Shown here: in pieces, positions 2,911 to 19,599 of the stretch
Layout of the letters: each line of letters begins with the position of its first letter
Position numbering within the stretch: position 1 is the first letter of the stretch
DNA from: a virus
Taxonomy: Duplodnaviria; Heunggongvirae; Uroviricota; Caudoviricetes
IMG/VR virus record: IMGVR_UViG_2617270964_000006
Location: 1 to 19,599 of that record
DNA: 19,599 nucleotides
Direction: 5' to 3' (one strand)
Notes under the pieces: model-generated
Seen by the model: only the letters and a program-made list of their open reading frames with translations
Database searches by the model: none
What the model was told of the DNA's origin: nothing
Made by a program: the position numbers and the translations under genes

Positions 2911-2912
2911 TG

Positions 2913-3113: not shown

Positions 3114-3607
3114 CAGCACAGCTCCGCAAACATTCGCGGTCGTCCCAGAATGTCAGAGATGGCCCAGCTCACATCGCGCCACAAATCCGATGTCTGTATA
3201 TCCAGTGCGTCCGCCCGGCGGTCGCCCTTGTCCGTTGTGTCCGCATCGCGGTAACGCTCCAGAATCAGGGCGCGTGTGGCGGTATAAACAGCATTGCGCC
3301 AGTGCCAGAGATTGACGCTTTCTCCGTTAATTACAGGGGCCGGAACATCGGCCAGCGTCTGATAGCCAGCCGCCTGTTGTTCCTGCTGCCATGCTTCCAG
3401 CTCGCGGGTAACGTGTGCTATGGCCCCGGTGGCGGTATGCAGCAGGCGGGAGGTGGTCACGCGGCCCGGCAGTCGTACCGCCAGACGCAGCTCGCGCAGC
3501 ACAATATCCGGCCAGAATGCACCCGCTGAAATACGGGTATCGCCATCATCGGTGTCGGTGATGTCGTCCTCTGCGGGGCCGGGGTTAGTTCTGGCAACCA
3601 TACTCAT
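3113..3607 (-). CDS. L: P2 gpL-like head completion/stabilisation protein
   Basis: About 164 aa in the conserved position between M and X; first ATG at 3607 preceded by AGGAG. Family assigned from synteny and size. Confidence 0.7.
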   Translation of the reverse strand: MSMVARTNPGPAEDDITDTDDGDTRISAGAFWPDIVLRELRLAVRLPGRVTTSRLLHTATGAIAHVTRELEAWQQEQQAAGYQTLADVPAPVINGESVNLWHWRNAVYTATRALILERYRDADTTDKGDRRADALDIQTSDLWRDVSWAISDILGRPRMFAELC

Positions 3608-3621
3608 GGGGTTCACTCCTG

Positions 3622-3692
3622 AAAAAATCGGGCGGTGGGTGCGCGGTGTAAACGGTCACGGAGTCAAACCGGAACACCGCGCACGCCGCCCG
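3622..3692 (-). terminator. long imperfect hairpin plus U-tract between M and L (putative intra-operon terminator/attenuator)
   Basis: Arms 3629-3649 (CGGGCGGTGGGTGCGCGGTGT) and 3674-3692 (ACACCGCGCACGCCGCCCG), about 18 bp paired; on the minus strand followed by ATTTTTT (3628-3622), then the L RBS. Confidence 0.45.
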
Positions 3693-3708
3693 CTGACGGG
3701 GTCAGTCG

Positions 3709-4509
3709 TTAACCGCGCTTTGCCTTCTGCGTCGCGGTGGTTTTTCGTGTTGCAGGCTTCTGCGTTGTCTTTTTACTTTTGCTGCTTTCGTCCTGCGTCT
3801 GCTGTGCGCTGGCGTCTTCTGGTGCGGCTGCGGAATCGGCTTTTTTCAGGGCGCGGGAAAGGGTTGCAATCTCGCGTTTCACACCTGCGTTCGGGTTCAG
3901 GTGCATCGCTTCGCGCAGCAGCTTCAGTGATGAGGCCATGTTGTCTGCATCGGTCAGGCCACGACGGGCAAAGGCACACGCCTTGCATAATTTGGCGCGC
4001 ACTTCGTCCGGCATGTCCTGGTTGGCGACAATTTCCCAAAGTGTGTCCAGTGGTTCGATAAAGGCGGATAAATCCGCGTCGGCATCCGTCCCGGCCTGCG
4101 TCAGTACCGGGTTGCAGATTTCTTCGGTCAGTACCGTGGCAGCAGTACGGCCAAAGTTATCCGGCATGATGAGGTTGTGACGGACCACATATGCACCAAT
4201 ACGCAGCGCCAGCGGAAGATCGCCGCAGTCAATCGCCCACACCATCAGCGTGGCAATTACTTCGTCCTGTTGCCCGCCGTCAGTCTCCAGCGTTCCCTCA
4301 ATCCAGCCGGAAAAGTCCGGCAACAACTCTTTTTTGATGGCGGCTTTCGCGCTTCTGGCCTGTACGCCCTTTAGCCTGGCCTGTGCCAGACGCAGACGAT
4401 ACAGCACCTCTTCATGCGCGGTACGCGCGGCGTGGTCCACACCTTCATTCGCCCGGCCTGCGCGCTGTGCCATCACGTTCTGCCAGTGTTGTTGTGCAGG
4501 AGTAATCAT
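3709..4509 (-). CDS. M: P2 gpM-like terminase small (endonuclease) subunit
   Basis: 266 aa, ATG with GGAGAG RBS, basic K/T-rich C-terminal tail; position between N and L. Confidence 0.8.
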   Translation of the reverse strand: MITPAQQHWQNVMAQRAGRANEGVDHAARTAHEEVLYRLRLAQARLKGVQARSAKAAIKKELLPDFSGWIEGTLETDGGQQDEVIATLMVWAIDCGDLPLALRIGAYVVRHNLIMPDNFGRTAATVLTEEICNPVLTQAGTDADADLSAFIEPLDTLWEIVANQDMPDEVRAKLCKACAFARRGLTDADNMASSLKLLREAMHLNPNAGVKREIATLSRALKKADSAAAPEDASAQQTQDESSKSKKTTQKPATRKTTATQKAKRG

Positions 4510-4526
4510 TTTTTCTCTCCGTTACA

Positions 4527-4545
4527 GGCGGGCATGATGCCCGCC
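4527..4545 (-). other. perfect 9-bp palindrome/hairpin in the N-M intergenic spacer
   Basis: GGCGGGCAT-G-ATGCCCGCC; no U-tract on the transcribed strand, so more likely an RNA processing/stability element or pause site than a terminator. Confidence 0.35.
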
Positions 4546-4554
4546 GTGAGTTGA

Positions 4555-5607
4555 TTAGCTGTCGGCGAACTTCAGGCCAGTGATCATCGCGCACTTGCCA
4601 TAGTCTTCAACGACATAAGCGTCATTGATGGACTGGTAGGTGGCGATGCGGTTGTATTCCGGCTCGTCTTTCATCAGGCGACGCATTGAACCTTTCTGCC
4701 AGTAAATCGACAGGTTGTTGAACGAGGTGATAAGCATCGTTGCATCCGGGAAGAACGGCGCAAGGAACACGCCCAGCCCGCCAATGGTGCGCGATGACAG
4801 GATGAGCTGCCCGGCAAGTAATTCCGCATTGGGATTCTGGCCGCTGATGCTGTTCAGCACGGGCAGACGCAGCGAGTTAAACAGGTTGCGCCCCATAATC
4901 ACCGCGAGGTCGTCAGCTTCCTTGTGCCATTCATCCAGCAGGGATGAGCGCGCATCCTGTACCAGAGCATCGGCATTCGCATACTTACCCACGTGCGCCA
5001 CAGTGTTGTCCATGTTGCGGGAGGTCAGCGTCACGTCATTCATTACGCGCTCGCTGGCATCGGTTCTGATGTGCTCCAGCCAGCCCACGTTAACGTCCTG
5101 AAGCAGCTTGTTGGTGTGAAAATCAGACTCGTAGGCGTGGGATGTGCCGTTAAAGCCAATCATGATGCGATCAAGCGCTACCTGCCGGGCGATCTGTGTA
5201 CTGATACGGGACTGAAAATCGCTGTGGGCCGCCCAGGTATCAAGCTGTGGGTACGAAATAAAGGTATCGTAGTTCACCTGTTCGCACTGGTACTGACGAG
5301 ACTTCATATCGATCACGTTATTCGGGTTACGGCGTTTGATGCCGTCATAACTGCTATTCGTGCGCGCAATTGGCCCGGTGGTGTCCAGGAGGATTTTTTC
5401 GCCTTTCTGGTCGGTCACGCCGATCACGTTAATTCTTTTCGTAAATTCGGTACTTTCCTTTGAGGCGTTTTCAAAACGCTGCTGCACCGCGGGTTCCACG
5501 GTAAATCGCGATACCAGTGCAGATACCGGGATATTGTTAAGCGACGCCTGCTGCGCCATATAGCAACCCAGCTTGTTGCGGGTAATATCTGACATCACCA
5601 GATTCAT
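4555..5607 (-). CDS. N: P2 gpN-like major capsid protein
   Basis: 350 aa; ATG with AAGGAG RBS; size and position (after scaffold O) match the P2 head module. Confidence 0.9.
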   Translation of the reverse strand: MNLVMSDITRNKLGCYMAQQASLNNIPVSALVSRFTVEPAVQQRFENASKESTEFTKRINVIGVTDQKGEKILLDTTGPIARTNSSYDGIKRRNPNNVIDMKSRQYQCEQVNYDTFISYPQLDTWAAHSDFQSRISTQIARQVALDRIMIGFNGTSHAYESDFHTNKLLQDVNVGWLEHIRTDASERVMNDVTLTSRNMDNTVAHVGKYANADALVQDARSSLLDEWHKEADDLAVIMGRNLFNSLRLPVLNSISGQNPNAELLAGQLILSSRTIGGLGVFLAPFFPDATMLITSFNNLSIYWQKGSMRRLMKDEPEYNRIATYQSINDAYVVEDYGKCAMITGLKFADS

Positions 5608-5630
5608 AAAAAATTTGCTCCTTTGTCTTA

Positions 5631-6467
5631 TCAGAAGTCAGCCAGCTGGTCGGAGGCTGCGCCCGTTGCGGTGAAGCGGTTCTGCGGATCGCCGTCCTGC
5701 GTGCGCAGTTTTTCCTTCAATGCTGTCAGCTCTGTGGTCAGTGACGTGATTTTCTGGCGGTCCTGCTGATGGCGGGTTTCCAGCACATTAAAACGGTCGA
5801 TAATGTCGGCCTGTGACGTTGCAACGCCTTCCACCGCTTCCTGAATTCGGGAGAAACTGGCGTCATCCGCTTTGCGGCCACGACCAATAATCCCCATTAC
5901 GCGGTTAAACCACTGGGTGCCTTCTTCCTGGCGTTGTTCTGCCATTTCGATGATTTCAGACTCGATGGCTTCGGAGATAAGCGGTGCTTCACCCTGGATA
6001 CTGTTGAACGTCATCACCGCCTGACGTTGCTGTGCCGTGAATTTCAGGCGCTCAGTGCCCAGGCTTGCCGGGGTGTCGGTCATCGCCAGCCCGACCAGAT
6101 AGGCGCGCCCGTTAACGGAGAACTGCGGGTGCAGTTCGATACTGGAATAGATTTTCTTGCCGTCCGCGACAAGCTGCTTCATGCGTTCGGTAGGTTCGAT
6201 TTCTGCATACAGCGCAGTACGTCCGGCCAGCGGACCTTCCGTAATGTCTTCCGTACTCAGTGCGGTGACATCGCCCATTGCGGAAAATTCGCTTGACGGG
6301 CATGGCGAGAGATAGTGCTCAACGTTCACACGGGCAGCGTAAACATCCGGGTTGAAGTTCTCGGCGGCTTCACGCAGATGCACCGGGCTGATTTCGCGGC
6401 CATCAACAGTTGATCCGGAGACAGCCACGCGAAACTTTTTGCGGGATGTCTTTTTTTCATTAGCCAT
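5631..6467 (-). CDS. O: P2 gpO-like capsid scaffolding protein
   Basis: Start at ATG 6467 (GAGGGG RBS) gives MANEKKTSRKKFRVAVSGSTVDGREI..., recalled as matching the P2 gpO N-terminus. The track start at 6500 has no SD. Confidence 0.85.
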   Translation of the reverse strand: MANEKKTSRKKFRVAVSGSTVDGREISPVHLREAAENFNPDVYAARVNVEHYLSPCPSSEFSAMGDVTALSTEDITEGPLAGRTALYAEIEPTERMKQLVADGKKIYSSIELHPQFSVNGRAYLVGLAMTDTPASLGTERLKFTAQQRQAVMTFNSIQGEAPLISEAIESEIIEMAEQRQEEGTQWFNRVMGIIGRGRKADDASFSRIQEAVEGVATSQADIIDRFNVLETRHQQDRQKITSLTTELTALKEKLRTQDGDPQNRFTATGAASDQLADF

Positions 6468-6621
6468 AGTTTTTGCCCCTCTGACTGGTTCTTCAGTCAT
6501 GATGGCAAAGCGTAACAGGCTGATACAAAGGGCTTTTGTTGTAAGAAAACGGCCAGAACAGGGGGTTAAGGAGAACGGTTTCGCGCGCGGGTAATCTTCC
6601 TGTAATTACTCAGGGGGAGCA
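6468..6621. promoter_or_regulatory. divergent late promoter region for the O operon and the P-Q operon
   Basis: 154-bp spacer between divergent O and P starts, with imperfect dyad ACAAAG-GGC-TTTTGT (6525-6539) about 90 bp upstream of the P ATG. Confidence 0.4.
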
Positions 6622-8373
6622 ATGATTCAGGACGCTTTTGTGCGCCAGCGTGCGCGGCAACTTTACTGGCAGGGTTATCCGCCCGCAGAAATATCACGTC
6701 TGATGGGAATAAACCCGAACACGATTTATGCGTGGAAAAAACGCGACCAGTGGGATGAAACGCCACCCGTGCAGCGTGTCACGCAGTCCATCGATGCGCG
6801 CCTCATCCAGCTTACTGAAAAACAGAATAAAACAGGCGGTGACTTTAAGGAAATAGACCTGCTGACCCGGCAGCTTAAAAAAATGCATGATGGCCAGCCG
6901 GATGCGACGGCCACAGGAAAGAAAGGCCGGGCGAAAAAACTCAAAAATCATTTCACGCCGGAACAGATTGCCGCACTGCGGGAAAAAATCATCAGCAGGC
7001 TGGAGTGGCATCAGCGGGGCTGGTTTGACTCCCTGACCCTTTGCAGGGAAGCCGGGATACGTAACAGGATGATCCTGAAATCCCGACAGATTGGCGCGAC
7101 CTGGTATTTTGCACAGGAAGCACTGCTGATGGCGCTGCGTGACGATGTGGCGCAACCTTACCAGCGTAACCAGATTTTTTTGTCTGCGTCGCGTCGTCAG
7201 GCGTTCCAGTTTAAAAGCATTATTCAGAAGGCTGCGGCTGAAGTTGATGTGGAGCTGAAAGGGGGCGATAAAATCATCCTCTCCAACGGCGCAGAGCTGC
7301 ATTTTCTTGGTACTTCTGCTGCGACGGCACAGTCCTACACGGGCAATTTTTATTTTGATGAATTTTTCTGGGTCAGTCGCTTTGCTGAACTGCGCAAGGT
7401 GGCTGGCGCTATGGCAACCCTCAGCGGACTGCGGCGCACCTACTTCTCCACGCCATCCACCGAAACGCACGAGGCATACGCCTACTGGAACGGCGACCGC
7501 TGGAACGAGAAAAAGGCCACGCATAAACGCCAGCGTTTTTCTGTGGACTGGAAAACGCTGCATAACGGGCTTATCTGCCCTGACCGGACGTGGCGGCAAA
7601 TTGTCACGCTGGAAGATGTGGTTAAACACGGCTGGAAACACACCGATATCGACGAAATTCGTGATGAAAACACCGAAGACGAGTTCCTCAATCTCTATAT
7701 GTGTGAGTTTGTCCGCGAAGGGGAATCGGCATTTAACCTGAATATCCTGATTGGCTGTGGTGTTGACGGATACGACGACTGGAAAGACTGGAAACCTTTT
7801 GCTCCCCGCCCGATGGGGAATCGTCCGGTATGGATTGGGTATGACGCAAACGGCAGTAGTGGCAACGGCGACAGCGGCGCTGTGTCCGTGGTGGTTCCTC
7901 CGGCTGTTCCTGGAGGCCGTTTTCGAACGGTGGAGACGCGACGCGTTCAGGGGCTGGAGTTTGAAGAACAGGCCAGAGTCATTGAAGAGTTCACGTGTCG
8001 CTACAACGTGGAACACATCGGCATTGATGTGACAGGCGGGAACGGGGAGGCTGTTTATCAGATAGTGAAACGGTTTTTCCCTGCTGCTATTCCGTACACC
8101 TTCACGCTGTCATCAAAACGGTCGCTGGTACTGAAAATGCTGCAAATAATGCGTGCCGGGCGGTGGGAATACGATCGCGCCGAACGCGAGCTGGTCGCGG
8201 CCTTTAACGCCGTGCGTAAGGTGAAAACACCGGGCGGCTTTATCACTTACGAAACGGACCGAGCGAGGGGGATCAGCCACGGCGACCTTGCGTGGGCAAC
8301 CATGCTTGCTGTCATTAACGAACCGATTGGCGGCGAAGGAGAAAACGAGCGTTTCACGGTTATGGAGTTCTGA
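6622..8373 (+). CDS. P: P2 gpP-like terminase ATPase (large) subunit
   Basis: 583 aa; GGGGGAG RBS; N-terminal HTH-like LYWQGYPPAEISRLMGINPNTIYAWKK and ATPase core; stop overlaps the Q start (TGATG). Confidence 0.95.
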   Translation: MIQDAFVRQRARQLYWQGYPPAEISRLMGINPNTIYAWKKRDQWDETPPVQRVTQSIDARLIQLTEKQNKTGGDFKEIDLLTRQLKKMHDGQPDATATGKKGRAKKLKNHFTPEQIAALREKIISRLEWHQRGWFDSLTLCREAGIRNRMILKSRQIGATWYFAQEALLMALRDDVAQPYQRNQIFLSASRRQAFQFKSIIQKAAAEVDVELKGGDKIILSNGAELHFLGTSAATAQSYTGNFYFDEFFWVSRFAELRKVAGAMATLSGLRRTYFSTPSTETHEAYAYWNGDRWNEKKATHKRQRFSVDWKTLHNGLICPDRTWRQIVTLEDVVKHGWKHTDIDEIRDENTEDEFLNLYMCEFVREGESAFNLNILIGCGVDGYDDWKDWKPFAPRPMGNRPVWIGYDANGSSGNGDSGAVSVVVPPAVPGGRFRTVETRRVQGLEFEEQARVIEEFTCRYNVEHIGIDVTGGNGEAVYQIVKRFFPAAIPYTFTLSSKRSLVLKMLQIMRAGRWEYDRAERELVAAFNAVRKVKTPGGFITYETDRARGISHGDLAWATMLAVINEPIGGEGENERFTVMEF

Positions 8374-9419
8374 TGAGCAGAAAAAATAAAAAAGTGCGCA
8401 TGAGTTCACGCATTGATCTCGCTGATGCGCTCAGGAAAGAATCATCGCTCAGTGCATTCACTTTTGATGGTCCTTATCGCCTGACCGGGCATGATTTGCT
8501 GGACAATATGTACTGTGCTGATAACGGGCGGTGGTATGAAACCCCGGTGGACTGGTACGGTCTGGCAAGAGCCGCCCGGCAAACGTCCTGGCATCAGTCT
8601 GCGCTTTACTTTAAGCGCAATGTATTGCTCGGTTGCTATATTCCGCACCCGCTGCTTTCCCGGCAGGATTTCTCGGCGCTGGCGCTGGACTGGTTTGTGT
8701 TCGGTAATGCATTCCTTGAGCTTCGAAGCAATATGCTCGGCGAACCGCTTAAATTACGGCACGCCCTGGCGAAATACATGCGACGCGGAAGCGATCTTGA
8801 ATCATGGTGGTATGTGCAGGATGGTAAGGACGCGTTTCAGTTTCGCCCTGGCAAAGTGTGCCACCTGATGAATCCGGATATTAACCAGGAAATCTACGGC
8901 ATGCCGGAATATCTCGGCGCATTACTCTCGGCCAGCCTGTCTCATTCGGCGGACATGTTCAGAAAACTGTACTACGACAACGGATCCCACGCCGGGTGCA
9001 TCATCTACATCGGTGCAGCGCAGGTAAACCGCGAAAGCATGGACTCCCTGAAAGAAACGCTACAGGGGGCACGTGGTGGTGGTGCGTTTAAAAACGTGCT
9101 CATTCATGCGCCCAACGGGGGCAAAGAGGGGGTGCAAATTTTGCCGTTCCAGCAGATCACCGCAAAAGATGAATTCATGAATGTTAAGGCGGCATCCCGT
9201 GATGATGTGCTGGCTGCGCACCGCGTTCCGCCGCAACTGATGGGGGCGATGCCGGGCGAAAAAAGTGCGTTTGGCGATGTGGAGAAGGCAGCGCGGGTTT
9301 ACGCAATTAACGAGCTGATGCCCGTCATGGAGGCTATGAAGCACATCAATGGCTGGCTTGGCGAAGAGGTGATCCGTTTTAACTCTTATGCTCTTCTTGA
9401 TGAAAAAACAGCCCCGTGA
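8373..9419 (+). CDS. Q: P2 gpQ-like portal protein
   Basis: 348 aa, translationally coupled to P; P-then-Q order on one strand, convergent with A, as in P2. Confidence 0.95.
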   Translation: MSRKNKKVRMSSRIDLADALRKESSLSAFTFDGPYRLTGHDLLDNMYCADNGRWYETPVDWYGLARAARQTSWHQSALYFKRNVLLGCYIPHPLLSRQDFSALALDWFVFGNAFLELRSNMLGEPLKLRHALAKYMRRGSDLESWWYVQDGKDAFQFRPGKVCHLMNPDINQEIYGMPEYLGALLSASLSHSADMFRKLYYDNGSHAGCIIYIGAAQVNRESMDSLKETLQGARGGGAFKNVLIHAPNGGKEGVQILPFQQITAKDEFMNVKAASRDDVLAAHRVPPQLMGAMPGEKSAFGDVEKAARVYAINELMPVMEAMKHINGWLGEEVIRFNSYALLDEKTAP

Positions 9420-9436
9420 TGGGGCTGTCCTTTTTA
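9402..9436. terminator. bidirectional intrinsic terminator between Q and the convergent 174-aa gene
   Basis: Stem ACAGCCCC (9408-9415) / GGGGCTGT (9421-9428), loop GTGAT, flanked by an A-run on one side and TTTTT on the other, so a U-tract follows the stem on either strand. Confidence 0.6.
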
Positions 9437-9958
9437 CCAGAGTTGAACCATTTTCTGGGTGCCGTCAGGCTTGAGATTATCAATTTCAGAGAGAACGTAA
9501 TATTGAATGGCTTCACAAACGGTGGTGTAGGGTGAATTACCTTCTTTAAGTGGCACGATATTATTATTAACGCGAACCTGTATTTCATCGTTATACATTG
9601 CGATCGAAACAGGAGTGTGCACGAACGCGACTTCGCCAGGTGTGTCGTCAACCACCGTTTCAATACTAAAAGTCAGTTTTCGCTCATCATTGCTGCCCCG
9701 TGCTTTGGGGGTAGCGGCAGGGATCTGGGATAAAGGCATTCTGCGAAATCCTTCGGCTGCTTCCAGTCCGCATGAAACGTAATGCTGGCGATTACCGTCG
9801 CTATCTGTCCAGGTCTGTGATGGCAGCTCCAGCGAGATTTCATAAGCATCAACAATGCCCTGGGCAAGGCGCACAAGCGGGGTCAGATCTTCATTGCGGC
9901 GAAAGCTCTCCTTTACCTGCTCCCGTTTTTCTCTTAACTGCTTGTAATTAATGACCAT
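9434..9958 (-). CDS. hypothetical protein (174 aa), orphan cargo gene next to the portal gene
   Basis: ATG at 9958 preceded by GGAGG 9 nt upstream; MVINYKQLREKREQVKESFRR...; no motif I recognise; composition visibly more AT-rich than the flanking structural genes. Confidence 0.6.
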   Translation of the reverse strand: MVINYKQLREKREQVKESFRRNEDLTPLVRLAQGIVDAYEISLELPSQTWTDSDGNRQHYVSCGLEAAEGFRRMPLSQIPAATPKARGSNDERKLTFSIETVVDDTPGEVAFVHTPVSIAMYNDEIQVRVNNNIVPLKEGNSPYTTVCEAIQYYVLSEIDNLKPDGTQKMVQLW

Positions 9959-10057
9959 AAGACAGCCTCCATTGATTTCTTTGCTCGTATTTTGCACTTA
10001 TGAAGTATGGTCGGCAAGGTGCCGTATCGCTGACGCGCTTCGCTTGTCTGCTGCTTC

Positions 10058-10086
10058 GCCGGGGCATAAAAAATTTATGCCCCGGC
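10058..10086. repeat. perfect 13-bp inverted repeat with 3-nt spacer
   Basis: GCCGGGGCATAAA-aaa-TTTATGCCCCGGC; no U-tract on either side, so a protein-binding palindrome or structural element rather than a terminator. Confidence 0.5.
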
Positions 10087-10385
10087 TCTCCAGCTCCTGT
10101 ATCAATCAGATAATTTCACGACGCCTTCCAGTTTATCGCCACCATCGACGGTCAGACTCTTACGCAATTCCACCGCGTTGACTGTATGTTCTCGCTGCCT
10201 CAGTGCGATTTTGACGGCCTTACCTTTCACCCCATCAAATCAAAAGCCCTCACGCCTTTTTCATGCTCAGCGTGAGAAATATGGCCATTCTGTTGTGTCT
10301 CTGCGACATCGTTCAGGGAATGCTATTTACCCCCTGAAACGCGGGCTGTTCCCCCGTCACCTGCGCGCAGAAAAAATGCGTTTTT

Positions 10386-10491
10386 TTGTGCACGCACGGA
10401 TCCTTGACGGATCCAGCCACCATGCGGGCTGGAAGGGTAAAAAGTCGTTCAAAAAAATTGTGCAAATTTGTGCACAATTGTGCATTGCGCA
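10386..10491. repeat. array of TTGTGCA heptamers with embedded palindromes
   Basis: TTGTGCA at 10386, 10458, 10468, 10478 (last three phased at exactly 10 bp); the latter two lie in the perfect palindrome TGCACAATTGTGCA (10471-10484); also GGATCC-TTGAC-GGATCC (10398-10414). Confidence 0.5.
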
Positions 10492-10507
10492 CTTGTTATA
10501 AATAAAC

Positions 10508-10532
10508 AAAAAAAGAGCCGCTATTGCGGCTC
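10508..10532 (-). terminator. intrinsic terminator of the HTH-peptidase/PIN operon
   Basis: Stem GAGCCGC / GCGGCTC, loop TATT; on the minus strand followed by TTTTTTT; about 35 nt downstream of the PIN stop. Confidence 0.65.
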
Positions 10533-10565
10533 AATATAATCCAATATGGCAAGAGAGATTTGGAT

Positions 10566-11084
10566 TCATTCGAAACTGGCAAGAATCTGTTCTCGAACAG
10601 AAGATTTCATCGTTAACCCACGATCTAGGAAAAATTGGAAATGCATTAAGGCTTGTTGTTTGTGGATAAGTCTCCTGTGCACAGCCTCTTGAAGTAGCCC
10701 TCCGTGGCGGGCGGCTTTTACACCGCGTTCCGCACACGTTTTATAAACCGCATTATCCGCCGAAAGACATGTTGCATCATGTATTCTCGCGTTAACAACG
10801 CAGCTTATGTCCGCATACTTCAATGCTCTCCTGCGATTTTTTATCTCAGCCATTTCAATAAAATGTTCAGGTTCGTAATCATTGGTGAAATTGTATGGAA
10901 GTTGCAGGCGTGTAAGCTGTTCCTGAACATCAAGATTGTATTTAGCTTTTAGTTCCTCGCAGACATAGGGGTCAATCCACACACCACCCGGGTAAATTTG
11001 CCAGATAAGATCTAAGCATTTACCTTCGTAAAAATCAGACAGTACATTCGTATCGATAACACATCTGGGGCATTCAAACGGCAT
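10566..11084 (-). CDS. PIN-like nuclease domain protein (candidate toxin/effector)
   Basis: ATG at 11084 with AGGAGG RBS, overlapping the upstream gene's end by 11 nt. MPFECPRCVIDTNVLSDFYEG... has the PIN strand-1 motif (V-I-D-T-N-V-L) and further acidic residues (CEEL, YADIS, IHDAT). About 172 aa. Confidence 0.6.
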   Translation of the reverse strand: MPFECPRCVIDTNVLSDFYEGKCLDLIWQIYPGGVWIDPYVCEELKAKYNLDVQEQLTRLQLPYNFTNDYEPEHFIEMAEIKNRRRALKYADISCVVNARIHDATCLSADNAVYKTCAERGVKAARHGGLLQEAVHRRLIHKQQALMHFQFFLDRGLTMKSSVREQILASFE

Positions 11085-12219
11085 CCTCTCCGGCCTCCTG
11101 TTCGTCGTACCATTCATCCAGAAGATTGCTGAGAGCTTTTCTGTCTAATTCTAAAAGTTCAGATATGAAGGTTTCCGACGCGGAACCGGCTTCCCATGCT
11201 TTACGCGATAAGACGGTTAGGCGGCCTTTATAATTTAGTGCTTCCCTAATGGGATTTGGCTCGTGTCTCTTCCAACCTTTACGATTGGCGGTTGCCCATA
11301 GGTATCTAGTGTTTTGTTGATTAATTAAATTACATTTACTAAGACGATCGATGATGCAAGTGGCTGATACTCTGAAAATGCTTTTTAGTCTAAGGACGGT
11401 TTCCTCATACGCCCATCCACCACCTTGCATGACGAATTGTTTTCGCAATGCGCTTTCTGGTACCAAAAAACAAGCAGCAAAGTGATTAGCAACTTTTTCT
11501 TCCGGTGAAATTGCTTTGCCATTGGTTTTATAGCTTTTAGCAGGGCCATCATACTCATCACGGTGGAAGATAAGATGAGCATATTCATGGCAAATACTGA
11601 AGATTTGACGTTCTATTGAAATGCTATCGTGAACATTTACATAAATCGCGGTACCGTATTTGTTCGAAAACGCAGAAAATCCGAATACCATCCCTTTATC
11701 AGTTTCTTCGCGATTGAACGGGATTACTCGAATATCCGATGCTTCCAAAATGGCTACAATGTCACCAACGCAAGTAGCGTTTCCTATACCAAGACGGAAA
11801 CGTTCTTCCATAGCCTTATCTTCGACTCTTCGCAAATCTTCTGCTTTGGCGGTAAAAATAGGCATTGAGTTAGGAAGATCTTCTGGCAAATTAGCATCTG
11901 CAGCTTCCTCAATTGCATTGATATTTTTTAACTTTTCAATCAACTCATTGCGAAGTTTGGCATCCAACAAATCCGGACTATCTGCTCGCATTGCAAAACG
12001 AAACTCGCCATCATCTTGCTCATAAAAATACCCGATAGGCTTATCGAAAATCTTGCAGAGCATGATGAGTTGGGTAACGCTTGGGACGCCTAGCGCCTGC
12101 TCAAACTTACTGTAGGTTTGACGAACAACACCGATCGCATCTGCGACGGCGCTTGCACTCATTCCTGCGTCGTTTCTGGCCTGAACCAAGCGTTCTGCTA
12201 TACGCTGTTGAATGTTCAT
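11074..12219 (-). CDS. XRE-family HTH fused to ImmA/IrrE-type (M78, COG2856) zinc metallopeptidase
   Basis: 381 aa; N-terminal HTH (RIAERLVQARNDAGMSASAVADAIGVVRQTYSKFEQ); HEXXH zinc site in SICHEYAHLIFH; AGGTGA RBS; AT-rich coding sequence. Confidence 0.85.
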   Translation of the reverse strand: MNIQQRIAERLVQARNDAGMSASAVADAIGVVRQTYSKFEQALGVPSVTQLIMLCKIFDKPIGYFYEQDDGEFRFAMRADSPDLLDAKLRNELIEKLKNINAIEEAADANLPEDLPNSMPIFTAKAEDLRRVEDKAMEERFRLGIGNATCVGDIVAILEASDIRVIPFNREETDKGMVFGFSAFSNKYGTAIYVNVHDSISIERQIFSICHEYAHLIFHRDEYDGPAKSYKTNGKAISPEEKVANHFAACFLVPESALRKQFVMQGGGWAYEETVLRLKSIFRVSATCIIDRLSKCNLINQQNTRYLWATANRKGWKRHEPNPIREALNYKGRLTVLSRKAWEAGSASETFISELLELDRKALSNLLDEWYDEQEAGEDAV

Positions 12220-12340
12220 ACGTCACCTGAATTTAACAATGGTGGCTCTTATGGGTTTAGATTGGTTAATTATTACTAACATTATGAATGGAGAGTTGCA
12301 AAAATCATAGTTAAATTATGCAAATTTCATGGAGCGTGAT
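12220..12340 (-). promoter_or_regulatory. AT-rich upstream region of the HTH-peptidase operon (putative sigma70 promoter/operator)
   Basis: Read on the minus strand: TTGCAA-17 nt-TAGTAAT candidate -35/-10, plus TTGCA/TGCAA partial inverted repeats. No experimental support. Confidence 0.3.
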
Positions 12341-12447
12341 GTGGTGTGGGTTCACACTCTCTGCTGATTACATCTAGGGCGGTTTCCGCCCTGGCTCTGC
12401 TTACTCAGGAAATAGCGCCCGGATATTTCCGGCCATCTGACTGGTTA

Positions 12448-12552
12448 TCTGTGCGGTTGGTACTGGCTGTGACACGGGGCGTTCTGTCCTGGGCCGTTCT
12501 CAGTCCATGCCAGCTTGATGTTGGTGGAGCCGTCATCGATACAAATTTTCAT
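12448..12552 (-). pseudogene. 34-codon remnant resembling the N-terminus of a ParM/StbA-like actin ATPase
   Basis: MKICIDDGSTNIKLAWTENG... versus the R1 ParM start MLVFIDDGSTNIKLQW as I recall it; AAGGAAAA RBS; in-frame TAA after 34 codons, with no continuation in any frame. Confidence 0.4.
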
Positions 12553-12583
12553 GTCGCTTTTCCTTATGTTGATTAATTAATCG

Positions 12584-12693
12584 TTTACGGGATTCTGAAA
12601 TCCCGTTTTCGCCTGTTTTGCGCGCGCTTCATATATCGCGGCGCGTTTTTTGCTCATTTACGGGATTTGTGAATCCCGTTTCTGTCTGTTTTT
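12584..12693. repeat. duplicated ~37-bp hairpin elements at the 3' end of gene A
   Basis: Copy 1 12584-12619 TTTACGGGATTCTGAAATCCCGTTTTCGCCTGTTTT; copy 2 12657-12693 TTTACGGGATTTGTGAATCCCGTTTCTGTCTGTTTTT (overlaps the last A codons); between them a GC-clamped AT-core hairpin followed by TTTTTT. Confidence 0.5.
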
Positions 12694-15450
12694 GTTTCCA
12701 CTGGTCAGGACACCCCGCAGCAGGTCTGCTTTGCGGCGGGCGCGTTCAGTGGTTTCACTGATTCTCTGTGCGTGCTCTGCGTCACGGATGGCGCGCAGCA
12801 TGTCAGAAAGCACGGTAACGGGAGTTTTCATGGTGTTCTGGTCCTGCTGAATTGTGGATGCCAGGCGTGCAGCGGCTTCAGGGTCTGATGCCCCGAGCTG
12901 TTTCAGATAGCTGGAAATCGGGTTATGGCGGATTTCCGTGCTGTTTACGCCGTGATTACGGCTCAGGCGCTGCCAGAGCTGCGTGATTCGGCTGTCCGGT
13001 CGGGTATCTGGTTTGCGTACAATTTCAAATCCCTGCGGTGCAATGATGCTGCCGTCAACGTACAGACTGCCGCCTCGTAACAGGTGCTGCATCTGCTGTT
13101 CACCGATATGCAGGCCGAGAGATTCGGCAGATTCCCGCCATTCTTTAGCGAGTAATTCGTGGTTATCAGGCAAAGGCCGCTGATGTTTGCGGCTCTGTGT
13201 CCAGCTCTGCATTTCATCGCTGCTGTTTTTTGTCTGTTTGTCACGAAGCGAACGCATCAGCGCCCGGCGTTCGTGTCGTTTCAGTGAGCGCATCCATTCG
13301 TTCACTTCAACGCCGTCAGGGAGCTGCGGCCACGGTGCTGGCCGTTCTTCCGGCTGTTCTGTCCCGTTGTTGTCCGTTTCCTGTACACGGGGACAGTTAT
13401 TGCCACGAGTCCAAGGGGCGGCAGGGCCGCCCTGAAGGTCAAAACCATTTTCGCGGGAGCTATCTTCCGCTTCCGGTTTGCGTCTTACCAGCTTCCAGTT
13501 ATCCGGATGCGTGCATACGCGGGAAGACTCCCCGATGAGCGGCGACCAGATCCCGTAAATCTGTACACTCTGCTCACCGTAATCGTTCAGTTCATCTGCG
13601 AGGTCGTAGGCGGTGCGAATCAGGTAGTCTTTGCGTGGAACAAGCACGCCACCCTGTTTTTCAATGTAGGTGGCAAAACACCCGGCATCAGCGGCAGCGA
13701 GTACCGCATCCATTGCGTCATCCTTCAGCCGTTGCGGGCCTTCCGGGTTGCGTGCCATCTGGCTGGCAAGGCGGCGCAGTTCACGCCACACCTGACGGGA
13801 GGGGATACCAAAGAACTGGAACTGGCGGATTCGGTGAAGGCGCGCCCAGCCGATGGCGCGTTCCACGCTCTCGGCCATTGATTTTCCGGTTTCGTGGTCA
13901 ACGCGTGGCTTGCCCGTTTTCGGGTCGATGCCATCCACGGCGCGGCTGTCCAGGTTCTTTCCGATGTAGGTGGCGATGTAGCTGGTTGGCGTGCCTTTTG
14001 AGCCGTCGACGTACTCCGCCTTAAAACGCGGAGTTATGTCATCGCCCAGCTCGTGGCGGTCTTCCTGAATGGCAATATCGCAGACGTGGGACACGATGGT
14101 TTCAATCTCGTCCGGATGTGCAAAGACCATCATATGCCAGTGCACAGTGCCGTCATGGTGAGGCTCCACCGTGCGGATGCCATACCAGCGCAGACCGTCG
14201 CGGTTCAGTTTTTTGCGGACCGCCGCAAAAAACGTGTTAACCAGATAATCGCTGGAGTCGCGCATGGTGGCCCCGTTCCATTTGGGGTTCGGATGACCGT
14301 TCTCTGTTGTAGCGTGGTATTTTGACGGGCAGGTGACAGTCAGAAACACCGCTCTGTCGCCACGGGCTTCGGCCAGAAGTTCCAGCCCCTTCATGGTGGC
14401 CATCATTTCTGCCTTACGGTGAACCGGGTTACTTACTCCCGCGTAATACACTGTCTCGAGATCAATCGTGAACCCGTCTTCGTTTTCCAGCATGAAACTT
14501 TTCAGGAAATCGCGTGTTTTCTCGCGCTGTGCGCGAAACTCGCTTAACGCGTCCTGGCTCAGATAGGGCGATGTTTTTCTGGAAACCAGACAGGCGGCGC
14601 GGAGTTGTTCTTCTCTCCACTCGCAACGTAACAGCCACAGTTTGCGTTTCCACCATTCCGCACAGGTCAGGCGAAGGATTGCGCCCGGCAGCAGTTCTGT
14701 GTCCGGTTCGTTCCTCCGGTCTTTGTCTGTTGTCAGTGCGTCATAATGCGGAGGCATGGCGTGCAAGTGTAACGCCATGCGGGCCAGCATCTGATACGCC
14801 TTCAGCGTTACATCCATGGTCAGCTCGCCATCAGTCGCGCCAAAACCATCGCAGAGTTTTTCGAAGGTGCTGCTGAACATCGCCGCCGTCATGGTGGCCA
14901 GCGTCTGTATCTGGTGTTTGTTGAGTTGCGGCAGGGAAAGCAAATCGTCCAGGCGTTCACGTCCGGCAAGGGACCGATAACCCGGTGTCAGCCAACGGCT
15001 GTCGGTGCGGTCCAGACGTACGAATATTTTGCGCAGGGTTCCGCGTGCATAGCGTTCCGCCTGCCAGCTCTTTTTGCCTTTCCGGCGATCGGCTTCCTGT
15101 TTTTTGCGCAGGAAGGAGAGGTGGCGAATAAGCGGATCGCGCAGATAGGACGGCAGCAGGCGCAGCGAGGCCATGGCTTCATCCACCGCGCCACGTGCCT
15201 GTTTTCTGGCTTCTCTGGCCAGTGTGATGGTTTTGTCCTGTTTTTCCTGTGCGTCCAGGCTTTTATTAATCAGGTTGCCCAGCGGCGTGGCGGAGAACGC
15301 CGCATCAGCCATTTCCTGGCGGCGCTCGTTCTCTGCCCGGTAGGCATCCAGCCAGGAGGAAAGCTCGGATTCAGGAGCGGGGATTCCCGTTCCTTCACGA
15401 CCCACTGCGTGGCGCGGTTGTTGCCAGTCCCTGATGTACTCTGCCGTCAT
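12658..15450 (-). CDS. A: P2 gpA-like rolling-circle replication initiator (HUH endonuclease)
   Basis: 930 aa; HUH motif in VEPHHDGTVHWHMMVF; convergent with Q across the cargo locus, as in P2. Longer than the ~760 aa I recall for P2 A, implying an extra C-terminal region. Confidence 0.9.
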   Translation of the reverse strand: MTAEYIRDWQQPRHAVGREGTGIPAPESELSSWLDAYRAENERRQEMADAAFSATPLGNLINKSLDAQEKQDKTITLAREARKQARGAVDEAMASLRLLPSYLRDPLIRHLSFLRKKQEADRRKGKKSWQAERYARGTLRKIFVRLDRTDSRWLTPGYRSLAGRERLDDLLSLPQLNKHQIQTLATMTAAMFSSTFEKLCDGFGATDGELTMDVTLKAYQMLARMALHLHAMPPHYDALTTDKDRRNEPDTELLPGAILRLTCAEWWKRKLWLLRCEWREEQLRAACLVSRKTSPYLSQDALSEFRAQREKTRDFLKSFMLENEDGFTIDLETVYYAGVSNPVHRKAEMMATMKGLELLAEARGDRAVFLTVTCPSKYHATTENGHPNPKWNGATMRDSSDYLVNTFFAAVRKKLNRDGLRWYGIRTVEPHHDGTVHWHMMVFAHPDEIETIVSHVCDIAIQEDRHELGDDITPRFKAEYVDGSKGTPTSYIATYIGKNLDSRAVDGIDPKTGKPRVDHETGKSMAESVERAIGWARLHRIRQFQFFGIPSRQVWRELRRLASQMARNPEGPQRLKDDAMDAVLAAADAGCFATYIEKQGGVLVPRKDYLIRTAYDLADELNDYGEQSVQIYGIWSPLIGESSRVCTHPDNWKLVRRKPEAEDSSRENGFDLQGGPAAPWTRGNNCPRVQETDNNGTEQPEERPAPWPQLPDGVEVNEWMRSLKRHERRALMRSLRDKQTKNSSDEMQSWTQSRKHQRPLPDNHELLAKEWRESAESLGLHIGEQQMQHLLRGGSLYVDGSIIAPQGFEIVRKPDTRPDSRITQLWQRLSRNHGVNSTEIRHNPISSYLKQLGASDPEAAARLASTIQQDQNTMKTPVTVLSDMLRAIRDAEHAQRISETTERARRKADLLRGVLTSGNKNRQKRDSQIP

Positions 15451-15456
15451 AGTGAT

Positions 15457-15822
15457 TTACTTCGTCATGCCATTCAGGGTGTCGCGGCAGACTGTAGCCA
15501 GCCGCTGAATTTCCAGCACGGTGTCTTCTGTGTCGGCATGGCGATGTGTGATGCGGATGCTGTCGGCAATCACATCGACGATTGCAGAGGATGGGCGCTG
15601 GTAAATGCCAATAACGGACGGGGTGCCACCTTCAATGCGGTAAAGCCTGTAATTTTCCTCATGGCTGTCAATCATGTAGCGACCATCAATAACAATCTTT
15701 CCGTCAGCGAGCTGCGGTACAGGCAGGGATTTCAGGTACATGTCATAACGATCACGCACGCGAGCGGCAAGATCACGTTCTGTGTTGAGCAGGTATTCAA
15801 GAAAGTCGTTGGCGAGAATCAT
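15457..15822 (-). CDS. hypothetical early-operon protein (121 aa)
   Basis: ATG with AGAGGA RBS; ends 6 nt before the A start. Confidence 0.55.
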   Translation of the reverse strand: MILANDFLEYLLNTERDLAARVRDRYDMYLKSLPVPQLADGKIVIDGRYMIDSHEENYRLYRIEGGTPSVIGIYQRPSSAIVDVIADSIRITHRHADTEDTVLEIQRLATVCRDTLNGMTK

Positions 15823-15894
15823 TGCGGCAATCCTCTTGCTACAGATGTGCGAAGGCCTCCCGCCGCAAGGTGCAGGAAAGGCCTGGAACAGGAA

Positions 15895-16125
15895 TTAATG
15901 GAGTTTGTTTTGCTGCTGGATGAGCTGCTGAAGCTCGCGCAGATCATCCGCCAGATAGCTGAAAACAGAGGCGGAATAAATGTTTGATAGTGCGTGGCTG
16001 CGCTCATGCAGCATATTGATGTGCATGATTTGCGCGACGCGTGATGCGCGGAAAAGTCTGCGGTTGATTTCAGTCTGGATGTGACGACGCTCCGCGATAG
16101 CGCGGTGCTGTTTGCGGTTTGCCAT
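15895..16125 (-). CDS. hypothetical early-operon protein (76 aa, basic N-terminus)
   Basis: ATG with AGAGAGG RBS; MANRKQHRAIAERRHIQTEINRR...; no recognisable motif. Confidence 0.5.
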   Translation of the reverse strand: MANRKQHRAIAERRHIQTEINRRLFRASRVAQIMHINMLHERSHALSNIYSASVFSYLADDLRELQQLIQQQNKLH

Positions 16126-16302
16126 GATGTGGCCTCTCTGTTAGTTAGTTTTGAAAACTCACCATCCAGAGGTTCCAAGCTCGGGGTGGTGAGACGTACA
16201 GGGTTGGAACTACCGGCTAACAGAGGACCCGGCCCAGCTGATGCTGGCCCTGTACGCCCCACCATAATTCTGACGCGAAAAAGACGTGGCGATACGGCAC
16301 GC

Positions 16303-16325
16303 ACAAAAAAACCGCTGGCGCGGTT
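16303..16325 (-). terminator. intrinsic terminator-like hairpin
   Basis: AACCGC-TGGC-GCGGTT (16310-16325); on the minus strand followed by TTTTTTT (16309-16303). Confidence 0.45.
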
Positions 16326-16443
16326 GTGCGCTCTGTTAGTCTGCGGGGTTCCAATCCCGGCACCCGTTTTATGAGGTGCAGCGGAAATGTAACCTGACTG
16401 ATTGCGGCATGGCAAGCGGTTTTTTTGTGAGAACGGCATACTA

Positions 16444-16486
16444 AAAAATCCTGATACTGCTCCGGCCAGCGGTTTTCACTGGCCGG
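16444..16486 (-). terminator. hairpin downstream of the SPFH gene stop
   Basis: CCGGCCAG (16462-16469) / CTGGCCGG (16479-16486) with 9-nt loop; T-run (16449-16444) 12 nt further on the minus strand. Confidence 0.4.
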
Positions 16487-16492
16487 GTTTAA

Positions 16493-17323
16493 TTACTTCA
16501 CCGGAACAAACGGAACAGCGGTGTTACTGGTCATGTATTGCGGTAGCGTGCCGTTCCATTTGTTAATCGCTTCCAGCTCCATAACGCCGGGATTCTGGCG
16601 CAGAGCTTCACCGCGTAAACGAATGGCGTCGGCTTCAGCCTGGGCTTTTGTGCGAATGGCATCGGCTTGTCCGGCAGCTTCTGCGCGCAGCATGTTGGCT
16701 TCAGCTTCGCGTTGCTTGACTTCCTGTTCACGTTGCAGGGTTTTCTGGTTTGCCGTGACTTTGGCATTAATGCTGTCGATAACGGTTGGCGGGTATTCCG
16801 GCTTACCCACATAAGAGAGGCTCATTACCTGAATGCCGATAGGTGTCATTTCTGCCTGAATGTCTTTAAGTGCTGAATCCAGCAGTTCAGACTTGCCACC
16901 GTCGATAAATTTATCGGTGGTCATTTTGCTGGCCAGTCGGTTGAGTGCGTCGGCGATCTTCTGGCGCAGGTCAGTGTCGGTAATGTCATCCACGCCTTTG
17001 CGGTAGGTCTGAAACACTATAGTAACTTTGGATGGATCAACCTTGTAGGCCACACCGATGTGATAGCCGATGGTTGTGCCGTCACTCATCTGAAAGCTGA
17101 ACGGCTCATTGTAGGTCTTCATTTGTTTGAAGGTCGGGAAGATGTAAACCTCGGTATTCCAGCCAGTCCAGTAGCGGCCAACGCCAACCACTTCGCCAAC
17201 GCCTTTGTCGTCGCCCAGCTTGTTGACTTTGATGCCCACATTACCTGGCTCAACGCGATCGCAGCCAACCAGCAGGATGGCGGCAAAAAGCGGGAGAATC
17301 TGAAAGAGTTTGAATTTCTTCAT
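16493..17323 (-). CDS. SPFH/band-7 (prohibitin/stomatin-like) lipoprotein
   Basis: 276 aa; signal peptide with lipobox LLVGCD; C-terminal A/E/R-rich coiled coil (QREQEVKQREAEANMLRAEAAGQADAIRTKAQAEADAIRLRGEAL); AAGGAAA RBS; start overlaps the upstream gene's stop (ATGA). Confidence 0.8.
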   Translation of the reverse strand: MKKFKLFQILPLFAAILLVGCDRVEPGNVGIKVNKLGDDKGVGEVVGVGRYWTGWNTEVYIFPTFKQMKTYNEPFSFQMSDGTTIGYHIGVAYKVDPSKVTIVFQTYRKGVDDITDTDLRQKIADALNRLASKMTTDKFIDGGKSELLDSALKDIQAEMTPIGIQVMSLSYVGKPEYPPTVIDSINAKVTANQKTLQREQEVKQREAEANMLRAEAAGQADAIRTKAQAEADAIRLRGEALRQNPGVMELEAINKWNGTLPQYMTSNTAVPFVPVK

Positions 17324-17523
17324 TGTTTAATTTCCTTGATGTACTTACTGAAAAGGCGAACAACGCCTGCCGGGTACAGCATGGCAATGAAAATGCCCAG
17401 CAATACCAGGAAAGAGCTGTCTGATGAAATCATTCGGGGGAGTACCCCTACATACAGAATGAGAGAGACGAGGACGCATACCAGCGCCCATGCATATGCA
17501 CGAAACCATGTCTTGTTGTTCAT
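17320..17523 (-). CDS. small membrane protein (67 aa, two predicted TM helices), partner of the SPFH gene
   Basis: ATG at 17523; WFRAYAWALVCVLVSLILYVGVL and FLVLLGIFIAMLYPAGVV hydrophobic segments; translationally coupled to the SPFH gene. The track's longer N-terminus is basic, low-complexity. Confidence 0.55.
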   Translation of the reverse strand: MNNKTWFRAYAWALVCVLVSLILYVGVLPRMISSDSSFLVLLGIFIAMLYPAGVVRLFSKYIKEIKQ

Positions 17524-17533
17524 GTTGCGGCCC

Positions 17534-17746
17534 TTACTGGTTAAGGAAAAAATCGAAAACCTTGTCAATGCGTTGCAGCAGCTCTTGCTGTATTGCTTCC
17601 GGCGTTTCCGGTTCGCCTGGCGCCTCCAACGTCGCGCAGAAATCAGCGATTTCATGATGGAGTGTCAGGCGAATGGCAGGGGCCGTGGTTCTGGCGTGCT
17701 CCAACTCATCCAGCAGTGCCAACACCACTGACGGTTGTAAGCTCAC
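17534..17746 (-). CDS. hypothetical acidic protein (70 aa)
   Basis: ORF-track call; GTG start with no clear SD; ends 11 nt before the small membrane protein gene. Confidence 0.3.
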   Translation of the reverse strand: MSLQPSVVLALLDELEHARTTAPAIRLTLHHEIADFCATLEAPGEPETPEAIQQELLQRIDKVFDFFLNQ

Positions 17747-17825
17747 GCGAGATGGTAGTGATTCATGGGGGGTATTCTTTGCACGGCAGTCGCCAGTTCG
17801 CGTAGTTCCTGGTGGTTGATGATGC

Positions 17826-18077
17826 TCATGCTCTGGCTTCCTTCAGTAACTGGTTAAACATATTGGTAAGTGGATTGCCGCACCCGAACGGCATCGGGTT
17901 TACCTGGTAAGAGAAGCGACCACCTGTTTTGCGCTCTTTTCTTATGACTGAACCGCTACGCCAGAGTCGGCGTAACTCCGCATTAATAGCTGTGGTTGGG
18001 GTATTCAGTGCTGCGGCGATTTCTCCACCGCTACACCCCGGATTGGCGGCGATATAGTCCAGAATGGTCATCTGCAT
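17826..18077 (-). CDS. small winged-helix-like DNA-binding protein (83 aa)
   Basis: ATG with CAGGAG RBS; ILDYIAANPGCSGGEIAAALNTPTTAINAELRRLWRSGSVIRKER resembles a wHTH recognition region. Confidence 0.5.
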   Translation of the reverse strand: MQMTILDYIAANPGCSGGEIAAALNTPTTAINAELRRLWRSGSVIRKERKTGGRFSYQVNPMPFGCGNPLTNMFNQLLKEARA

Positions 18078-18271
18078 GACTCCTGTACCTGTCGGATAAG
18101 GTTCACCCGCACCACGTTGGTGGCGCAGAAGTAAGTGCCGTCAGTGAGGTAGATGTGGTGAGCATCCTTTTCTGAACGGTGTTTGTCGATTGTGGTAATC
18201 AGGCGTTCGTCGACTTCGTATTCACGTCCTCTGGAGGTAAAACGAACGACAGGAAAGTGCTTAATTGCCAT
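18068..18271 (-). CDS. hypothetical early-operon protein (67 aa)
   Basis: ATG at 18271 overlaps the upstream gene's stop by 11 nt; the longer track start would overlap by 71 nt. Confidence 0.45.
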   Translation of the reverse strand: MAIKHFPVVRFTSRGREYEVDERLITTIDKHRSEKDAHHIYLTDGTYFCATNVVRVNLIRQVQESCR

Positions 18272-18578
18272 TGCGCCCACTGTTCTGTTTCTGGCGACGG
18301 ATGCGGGATAGCTGGATTTCCAGCTCTTCAATGTGGTCGTGCAACTCGTCTATTTCGGCGAAAAGCGAATCAAGGGTTGATGAGAGTTCCGTTAACAGGG
18401 CCTTTGCCGCCAGTGCAACAGTAAACGTGCCGATGTCGCGTTCCGGGTCAATTTCACTAACAAGTGTTCTGGTTAGTTCAAGAGCGACGGGTAGCGCCTC
18501 TTCCAGTTTGCAATCCTGGAGATGAGCAAGAATAGTTAATGCGTCGCATTGAATTTTGTCTTCTTTATTTTGTTTCAT
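18261..18578 (-). CDS. hypothetical early-operon protein (105 aa, acidic/helical)
   Basis: ATG start with an AAGGCGG SD-like sequence; no recognisable motif. Confidence 0.5.
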   Translation of the reverse strand: MKQNKEDKIQCDALTILAHLQDCKLEEALPVALELTRTLVSEIDPERDIGTFTVALAAKALLTELSSTLDSLFAEIDELHDHIEELEIQLSRIRRQKQNSGRNGN

Positions 18579-19265: not shown

Positions 19266-19599
19266 GGTAATGACTCCAACTTATTGATAGTGTTTTATGT
19301 TCAGATAATGCCCGATGACTTTGTCATGCAGCTCCACCGATTTTGAGAACGACAGCGACTTCCGTCCCAGCCGTGCCAGGTGCTGCCTCAGATTCAGGTT
19401 ATGCCGCTCAATTCGCTGCGTATATCGCTTGCTGATTACGTGCAGCTTTCCCTTCAGGCGGGATTCATACAGCGGCCAGCCATCCGTCATCCATATCACC
19501 ACGTCAAAGGGTGACAGCAGGCTCATAAGACGCCCCAGCGTCGCCATAGTGCGTTCACCGAATACGTGCGCAACAACCGTCTTCCGGAGCCTGTCATAC
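19266..19599 (-). mobile_element. IS1 insertion sequence, partial (terminal inverted repeat at 19266; continues past the window end)
   Basis: Begins GGTAATGACTCCAACTTATTGATAGTGTTTTATGTTCAGATAATGCCCGATGAC, which I recognise as an IS1 end; followed by the insB coding sequence. Confidence 0.9.
19281..19599 (-). CDS. insB: IS1 transposase InsB (C-terminal part; 5' end beyond the window)
   Basis: Translation ...[88 protein letters not shown] matches IS1 InsB as I recall it. Confidence 0.85.

Follow-up and report, generated by a model that had tools for sequence, protein, structure and literature searches.

The short reading frame directly downstream of the replication gene A, in the 19,599-nucleotide stretch of viral DNA analyzed here (IMG/VR record IMGVR_UViG_2617270964_000006, hereafter the window), is with a probability of about 95% an ordinary pseudogene remnant, a scar that arose by one internal 1,124-bp deletion in a parM-stbB partition module at a time when the neighboring cargo was already present. 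The breakpoints lie at nt 60 of parM and nt 221 of stbB, and the same cargo occurs behind intact modules, which together argue for an internal deletion in a cargo-bearing phage. The features of the window are the following, with the strand given where one applies.

8373-9419, plus strand: portal gene, convergent with the genes on the gene A side
9434-9997 (piece 9402-10025), minus strand: 187-aa ORF between the PIN and portal genes, matching PHROG 5091 (E = 1.8e-67)
10566..12219, minus strand: cargo spared by the deletion, made up of an RmrA-like HTH + M78 peptidase gene (11074-12219) and an overlapping PIN-domain gene (10566-11117)
12376..12392: hairpin shortly past the stbB stop codon, with a 7-bp stem and the minus-strand sequence AGGGCGG-AAA-CCGCCCT
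12401..12492, minus strand: 3' remnant of a ParR/StbB-type adaptor gene, its last 92 nt, encoding RTERPVSQPVPTAQITSQMAGNIRALFPE and a stop in its own frame
12445..12552, minus strand: fusion ORF of 35 codons plus stop, with ParM codons 1-20 followed by 15 out-of-frame codons of the stbB 3' end
12492..12493: deletion junction, 1,124 bp absent relative to strain N50; blunt, with 0 nt of microhomology
12493..12552, minus strand: parM 5' stump, nt 1-60, residues MKICIDDGSTNIKLAWTENG, identified by colinearity with N50, tblastn and Pfam StbA_N
12561..12565, minus strand: native parM ribosome-binding site AAGGA, 8 nt before the ATG
12587..12606: proximal copy of the palindrome ACGGGATTnnnnAATCCCGT, ~35 nt ahead of the start of parM; candidate operator or centromere for ParR
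12658..15450, minus strand: replication gene A, 930 aa, Phage_GPA E = 1.6e-129; upstream neighbor of the scar
12660..12679: second copy of the palindrome, inside the last gene A codons

The fused reading frame and its junction

The predicted 35-codon product is MKICIDDGSTNIKLAWTENGPGQNAPCHSQYQPHR. It is matched by Pfam StbA_N over profile positions 1-24 (E = 2e-7; 31.5 bits, where the curated cut-off is 24.6 bits) and by PHROG 691, 'partition protein' (E = 5e-4). Residues 1-20 are identical to those of ParM in P88-like prophages, and 13 of these 20 residues are shared with ParM of plasmid R1. At the DNA level, the best-matching complete E. coli genomes listed agree with 12493-12760 at 98.1% identity, across the 3' end of gene A and the 5' end of parM, and the AAGGA ribosome-binding site is invariant across 8 related loci. 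The stump holds the phosphate-1 loop DDGSTNIK, the DxGxxxxK pattern of the first beta-hairpin being present as IDDGSTNIK at residues 5-13. Of the full two-domain actin fold (~320 aa), which comprises the rest of StbA_N and a C-terminal domain with phosphate-2 and adenosine motifs, residues 1-20 are all that remain; a local tblastn search of the window with the full-length 319-aa ParM of a relative found no further ParM segments, its sole match being 12552-12478 (E = 9.5e-10). Because the rest of the ParM fold is gone, the ORF is a pseudogene of the family and not a member protein.

The initial annotation had described a ParM/StbA-like N-terminal fragment at 12448-12552, which is this same ORF without its stop codon. 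The ORF is real, it has a ribosome-binding site as proposed, and the ParM match, above the StbA_N cut-off, is well beyond chance; protein and translated searches had been suggested as a check, and those with StbA_N, PHROG 691 and tblastn find the resemblance. The accompanying statement that there is no continuation in any frame is correct for ParM, as judged by tblastn, but StbB residues 75-103 follow in another frame.

The deletion can be placed to the base by DNA alignment with the prophage locus of strain N50, in which the gene order is gene A, parM, stbB, the HTH/M78 gene, the PIN gene and the portal gene. Window 16364-12493 corresponds to positions 1-3876 of the N50 locus and window 12492-10026 to positions 5001-7466, leaving 3877-5000 absent; with the N50 parM start at 3817, the missing 1,124 bp consist of parM nt 61-960, a 4-nt spacer and stbB nt 1-220. 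The sequence reads ...GAGAACGGC up to the junction and CCAGGACAG... beyond it, with no base common to both sides. No microhomology abuts the breakpoints. The near-repeat AGAACG(G/C)C is found in the vicinity of both, and we rejected it as the cause of the endpoints because it is not flush with either. Past the junction, the parM frame reads the 3' end of stbB out of register to give PGQNAPCHSQYQPHR and then a stop. In the proper frame, 12490-12404 encodes StbB residues 75-103 with 100% identity (local tblastn, E = 1e-15), and tblastn detected no other par sequence in the window beyond ParM 1-20 and StbB 75-103. The adaptor gene expected of a type II partition locus is thus reduced in the window to 29 codons and a stop, without a start codon.

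The course of events most likely began with an ancestor that already carried the HTH/M78 + PIN cargo and in which a single illegitimate, blunt deletion joined parM nt 60 to stbB nt 221; the deletion mechanism was presumably non-homologous. Translation from the intact parM ribosome-binding site and ATG would then proceed through 20 ParM codons, cross the junction one base out of register and continue for 15 more codons in the 3' end of stbB before reaching a stop. On the known structure of ParM, the partition module is predicted to be dead in the window: 20 of the ~320 residues of the actin fold should support neither nucleotide binding nor polymerization, and a 20-residue stump together with 29 C-terminal StbB codons that lack a start would leave the module inactive.

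Intact modules and the cargo behind them

The ancestral arrangement is common among E. coli prophages. A megablast search with 12230-12760 matched 1,307 of 5,426 complete E. coli genomes, the best matches listed being annotated as 'replication endonuclease' and 'plasmid segregation protein ParM', and a parM-stbB query was covered to at least 80% in 1,242 of the 1,307. In intact loci with RefSeq annotation, gene A is followed by parM (960 nt) and then by a ParR/StbB-type adaptor gene (312 nt), which RefSeq names 'plasmid partitioning/stability family protein'. The intact ParM (319 aa) matches StbA_N (E = 6.9e-82), the ParM C-terminal domain (E = 6.1e-69) and the crystal structures of R1 ParM in the PDB (E = 4.7e-93, ~46% identity); the intact adaptor (103 aa) matches Pfam Plasmid_stab_B of the StbB/ParR family (E = 1.6e-24) and directly follows parM in N50, DA33135, phage P88 and one further relative.

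ParM is found at 95% identity or above in 14 phage records, among them P88, P884B11, 520873, 503458, Shae_phiSM, Chuche and PhiR44_2. These are exactly the 14 records with a gene A at least 80% identical to that of the window; P2-like phages outside this set have a gpA at most 43% identical to the window's and are absent among the ParM matches. The module is chromosomal at 1,453 of its 1,455 locations in E. coli, and where a type II locus is carried on low-copy plasmids, this one sits inside a chromosomally integrated prophage of the P2 family. The variation in presence and absence among close relatives that marks swappable cargo is not seen for parM-stbB within the genus. Judged by this distribution, parM-stbB behaves within the P88-like genus as backbone and not as swappable cargo. 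Rousset et al. (2022, PMC9122126) noted 'a putative plasmid partitioning system' at the gpA-gpQ locus in roughly one in four P2-like phages. ParM and StbB match no known defense system: no NCBIfam or PADLOC model reaches its cut-off, and there are 0 defense-family matches.

Two relatives stand out. In phage 503458 (NC_049341, locus 601-1474), the annotation divides parM into two 'partition protein' CDSs and the tblastn match falls into 4 pieces, which may reflect another disrupted parM or sequencing errors in the record. The prophage of AR_0119 (NZ_CP021535, locus 7461-11153) is heavily degraded, with partial portal, capsid and tail genes, and has kept parM, stbB and the HTH/M78 + PIN pair intact despite this degradation, a pattern of decay opposite to that of the window.

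Upstream of the stump, both 20-nt palindromes sit in 39-nt direct repeats 73 nt apart (12581-12692). The repeats are conserved in all P88-like loci examined (7 intact relatives) and are still present in the window. Across the 8 loci the palindromes vary little; in one locus, two changes preserve G-U pairing, and other loci have disruptive changes, a pattern compatible with an RNA or DNA structure as well as with a binding site. We regard the palindromes as candidate adaptor-binding (parC-like) sites. The 73 bp between the repeats have been lost in 2013C-3181 and in some other scar-bearing loci. A simple scan of 12200-12900, which is weak evidence, found no sigma-70-like promoter between gene A and the stump and nothing that would indicate a parC promoter of the R1 style; terminator-like signals in the same interval occur on the antisense strand only, at no more than their frequency in shuffled sequences. 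The position of parM directly after gene A, across a gap in which the scan found no promoter, would fit co-expression with the replication genes.

On the other side of the junction, the RmrA-like protein is matched by PADLOC RmrA (E = 2.8e-35) and, below its cut-off, by the NCBIfam spr1629 antitoxin family, and the PIN-domain protein by Pfam PIN (E = 4e-5). The HTH/M78 + PIN pair looks like a RosmerTA-type toxin-antitoxin or defense candidate, with PIN as the putative toxin, and is present in 32 of 5,426 complete E. coli genomes. The 187-aa ORF that lies between this pair and the portal gene is absent from 2013C-3181 and N50. In 397 complete E. coli genomes it adjoins the portal gene, and in DA33135 the cargo found with it is a different one; it seems to form a mosaic unit of the hotspot in its own right.

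The origin of the scar turns on the relation between this cargo and the module. According to the initial annotation, the current cassette had replaced a ParM-like occupant, which would mean that an incoming cassette was inserted or recombined at the parM gene and overwrote all but its first codons. The scar does adjoin the gpA-gpQ variable hotspot of P2-like phages (PMC9122126) and is tied to one particular cassette in every instance found, both of which would suit such a displacement. Between the stump and the cassette, however, lie 92 nt of stbB with its stop codon and the hairpin, so that the distal breakpoint falls within stbB and not at the edge of the cassette. Prophages with other cargo match the window past the junction as far as ~12371, that is, through the end of stbB and the hairpin, and the homology common to all parMR-bearing prophages stops there (DA33135 matches 12492-12371 only), which indicates that the variable region begins after stbB. 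In P88-like prophages, the left boundary of the variable cargo should accordingly be drawn at this point and not after gene A.

Displacement is also contradicted by relatives that carry both parts. A search with 10500-12500 found the same cassette, at 97.9-99.4% identity, in 31 further complete E. coli genomes. In those 31, homology begins at query base 9 or 10, equivalent to window 12492/12491, which is the junction, and the adaptor gene is annotated as intact; the two loci inspected, N50 and AR_0119, both have intact parM and stbB. With the same cassette standing behind an intact module in 31 complete genomes, we consider it very improbable that the cassette's arrival removed parM. The alignment to prophages with an intact actin-like gene, proposed earlier as a check, does place parM after gene A as anticipated, but it also places the cargo already behind the intact module. 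What stands of the earlier interpretation is that the fragment is the non-functional remnant of a once-intact ParM/StbA gene after gene A; displacement by cargo does not.

Spread, age and prophage background of the scar

By gene order and protein similarity, the element that carries the scar is a P88-like E. coli prophage (genus Xuanwuvirus, Peduoviridae, P2 family). The window has the P2-type order of terminase, portal, variable region, gene A and early genes, with Pfam matches for the portal and gpA; the genes from gene A to the portal gene belong to the gpA-gpQ region of a P2-family prophage. P88 gpA and the window's gene A are 97.5% identical at the protein level, and the prophage of strain DA33135 is colinear with the whole window at 97.7% identity.

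Among complete E. coli genomes, the scar is found in 2013C-3181 (NZ_CP027312) only. There it is already known, as RefSeq has annotated both pseudogenes in this sister genome: PGAP lists MJ73_RS25565 as 'parM ... missing C-terminus' and MJ73_RS27195 as 'plasmid partitioning/stability ... missing N-terminus'. The identity between 2013C-3181 and the window is 100% over 12500-10500, with one mismatch in 12594-10477, and drops to about 94-95% in gene A. An exact-sequence look-up across isolate assemblies and public read sets returned the identical 35-aa product on at least 18 contigs, where it is always followed by the same cassette. The 2,041-nt block that starts at the ribosome-binding site and runs through the PIN gene has 5 variable columns in 11 loci (the window and ten others); over this interval, the window and the intact locus of N50 differ at ~12 positions. 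A 26-nt exact pattern spanning the junction had 0 matches among the GTDB species representatives, the viral contigs of IMG/VR and the metagenome contigs of JGI, which indicates that the scar is a rarity beyond isolate data from E. coli.

Compared with the window's gene A protein, those of scar-bearing loci reach identities of 99.8%, 97.5%, 96.1% and 89%, and one block, comprising the 3' end of gene A, the scar and the RmrA-like/PIN cargo, is found with at least four gene A alleles. Scar and cargo have thus been inherited as one nearly invariant ~2 kb block in several P88-like backbones, which also means that the prophage persists without the partition module. These patterns are best accommodated by a single deletion event, probably of old date, after which the block would have moved into several P88-like backbones by homologous recombination.

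The conservation of the ORF could also be read as that of a selected small gene, for example, one for a phosphate-1-loop peptide that interferes with ParM filaments, whether of plasmids or of other phages. Both the native ribosome-binding site and the ATG have been kept, the ORF is identical on all of the contigs above, and gene callers predict it with its StbA_N match. That identity, however, is part of the near-invariance of the whole 2-kb block, which reflects recent common descent and not selection; the 15 C-terminal residues are out-of-frame stbB, and there are no diverged homologues of such length. A 20-residue N-terminal strand and loop of the ParM/actin fold is not known to function by itself. 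We give a selected peptide hardly any credence. No greater weight attaches to a recurrent deletion at a hotspot or a misassembly in place of a single inherited event: the gene A alleles of scar-bearing loci do differ (89-99.8% identical), but a blunt junction has no repeat that could bring about identical endpoints time and again, a closed chromosome and many independent read sets contain the junction, and the flanking 2 kb are nearly identical in all instances while intact relatives differ at ~12 sites, which fits one event followed by backbone recombination.

Comparison of window 5500-18500 with the 2013C-3181, N50 and DA33135 loci gives a picture of mosaicism. DA33135 is ~99-100% identical to the window over much of the early region (e.g. 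18500-17251) and beside the portal gene, and its identity falls to 88-97% in parts of 17250-16001; 2013C-3181 is nearly identical to the window in the scar and cargo block only; and across the 3' two-thirds of gene A, the window's identity to each of the three is ~94-96%. An A-tract at ~12688-12692, close to the gene A 3' end on the minus strand, is 5 A long in the window and in those four scar-bearing loci that were compared for gene A; most relatives have 6 A there, and phage Chuche has 7. The length of the tract shifts the frame of the last few gene A codons, giving 930 aa here and 940 or 946 aa elsewhere, and the 5-A allele travels with the scar block.

The window is closed by an IS1 copy (19266-19599), whose terminal inverted repeat begins exactly at 19266 and whose InsB C-terminus matches Pfam DDE_Tnp_IS1 (E = 7.7e-57). 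It breaks the early region of the prophage, and colinearity with related prophages stops at 19265. Because of this IS1 copy, a whole-window search matched 9,914 records, many of them plasmids. Taken together, the IS1 interruption and the par scar indicate a prophage decaying at no fewer than two places.

Implications and comparison with known systems

These findings support annotating 12401-12552 as two adjoining pseudogene fragments, parM 5' and parR/stbB 3', and as neither a small gene nor evidence of cassette exchange. The remnant is of a type ordinary in P2-like prophages, and its wider value is limited to the fact that scar-bearing prophages are natural parMR-null variants for a module otherwise fixed in the genus. 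That the loss of the module was selected, and not a matter of neutral decay, we consider unlikely. Were it true, a module carried genus-wide would be dispensable or even costly in some hosts, a possible cost being partition incompatibility with resident R1/IncF-type plasmids, and the scar-bearing prophages would serve as natural knock-outs for an actin-type segregation pair acting in phage DNA positioning during lytic replication, in the manner of AlpAC, or in episomal maintenance.

The closest reference for the intact state is phage P88 (NC_026014), in which parM (gp17) and a partition protein (gp18) occupy the same place directly after gene A. The first 60 nt of its parM and the last 92 nt of its adaptor gene are identical or nearly identical to those of the window, and it has the same ribosome-binding site and both palindromes, whereas the window lacks the 1,124 bp between and neither protein can be made. 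The pseudogene pair of 2013C-3181 has a junction and cargo identical to those of the window, while also lacking the 73 bp between the palindrome repeats, having a frameshifted gene A and carrying no 187-aa ORF.

Plasmid R1 ParMRC (StbA/StbB of NR1/R100) has the same two protein families in the same order as the ancestral module. The phage version differs in lying after gene A of an integrated P2-family prophage and, in the window, in having been deleted. In plasmid R1, parC is an array of ten 11-bp iterons; no iteron array of this type is seen upstream of the stump, where the two 20-nt palindromes stand instead.

For the role of ParM in P88 and other P2-like phages, the literature holds annotations and one speculative remark on plasmid-like maintenance (PMC9122126). 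A prophage-encoded actin-like protein with a DNA-binding adaptor is known from AlpAC of the Corynebacterium glutamicum prophage CGP3 (PMC4446434, PMC5539076), and offers a precedent in which such a pair serves the replication or transport of phage DNA rather than plasmid inheritance. A role of the intact P88-like module like that of AlpAC would fit, by analogy only; the host and phage type are different.

Among P2-like prophages, 98% are reported to carry at least one pseudogene. Intergenic remnants of very small size make up ~90% of the pseudogenes, about half occur in defense-associated loci, and few derive from defense genes (PMC13586616). The par scar fits this description of small remnants, and differs from it in that both the ancestral state and the deletion have been reconstructed here base by base.
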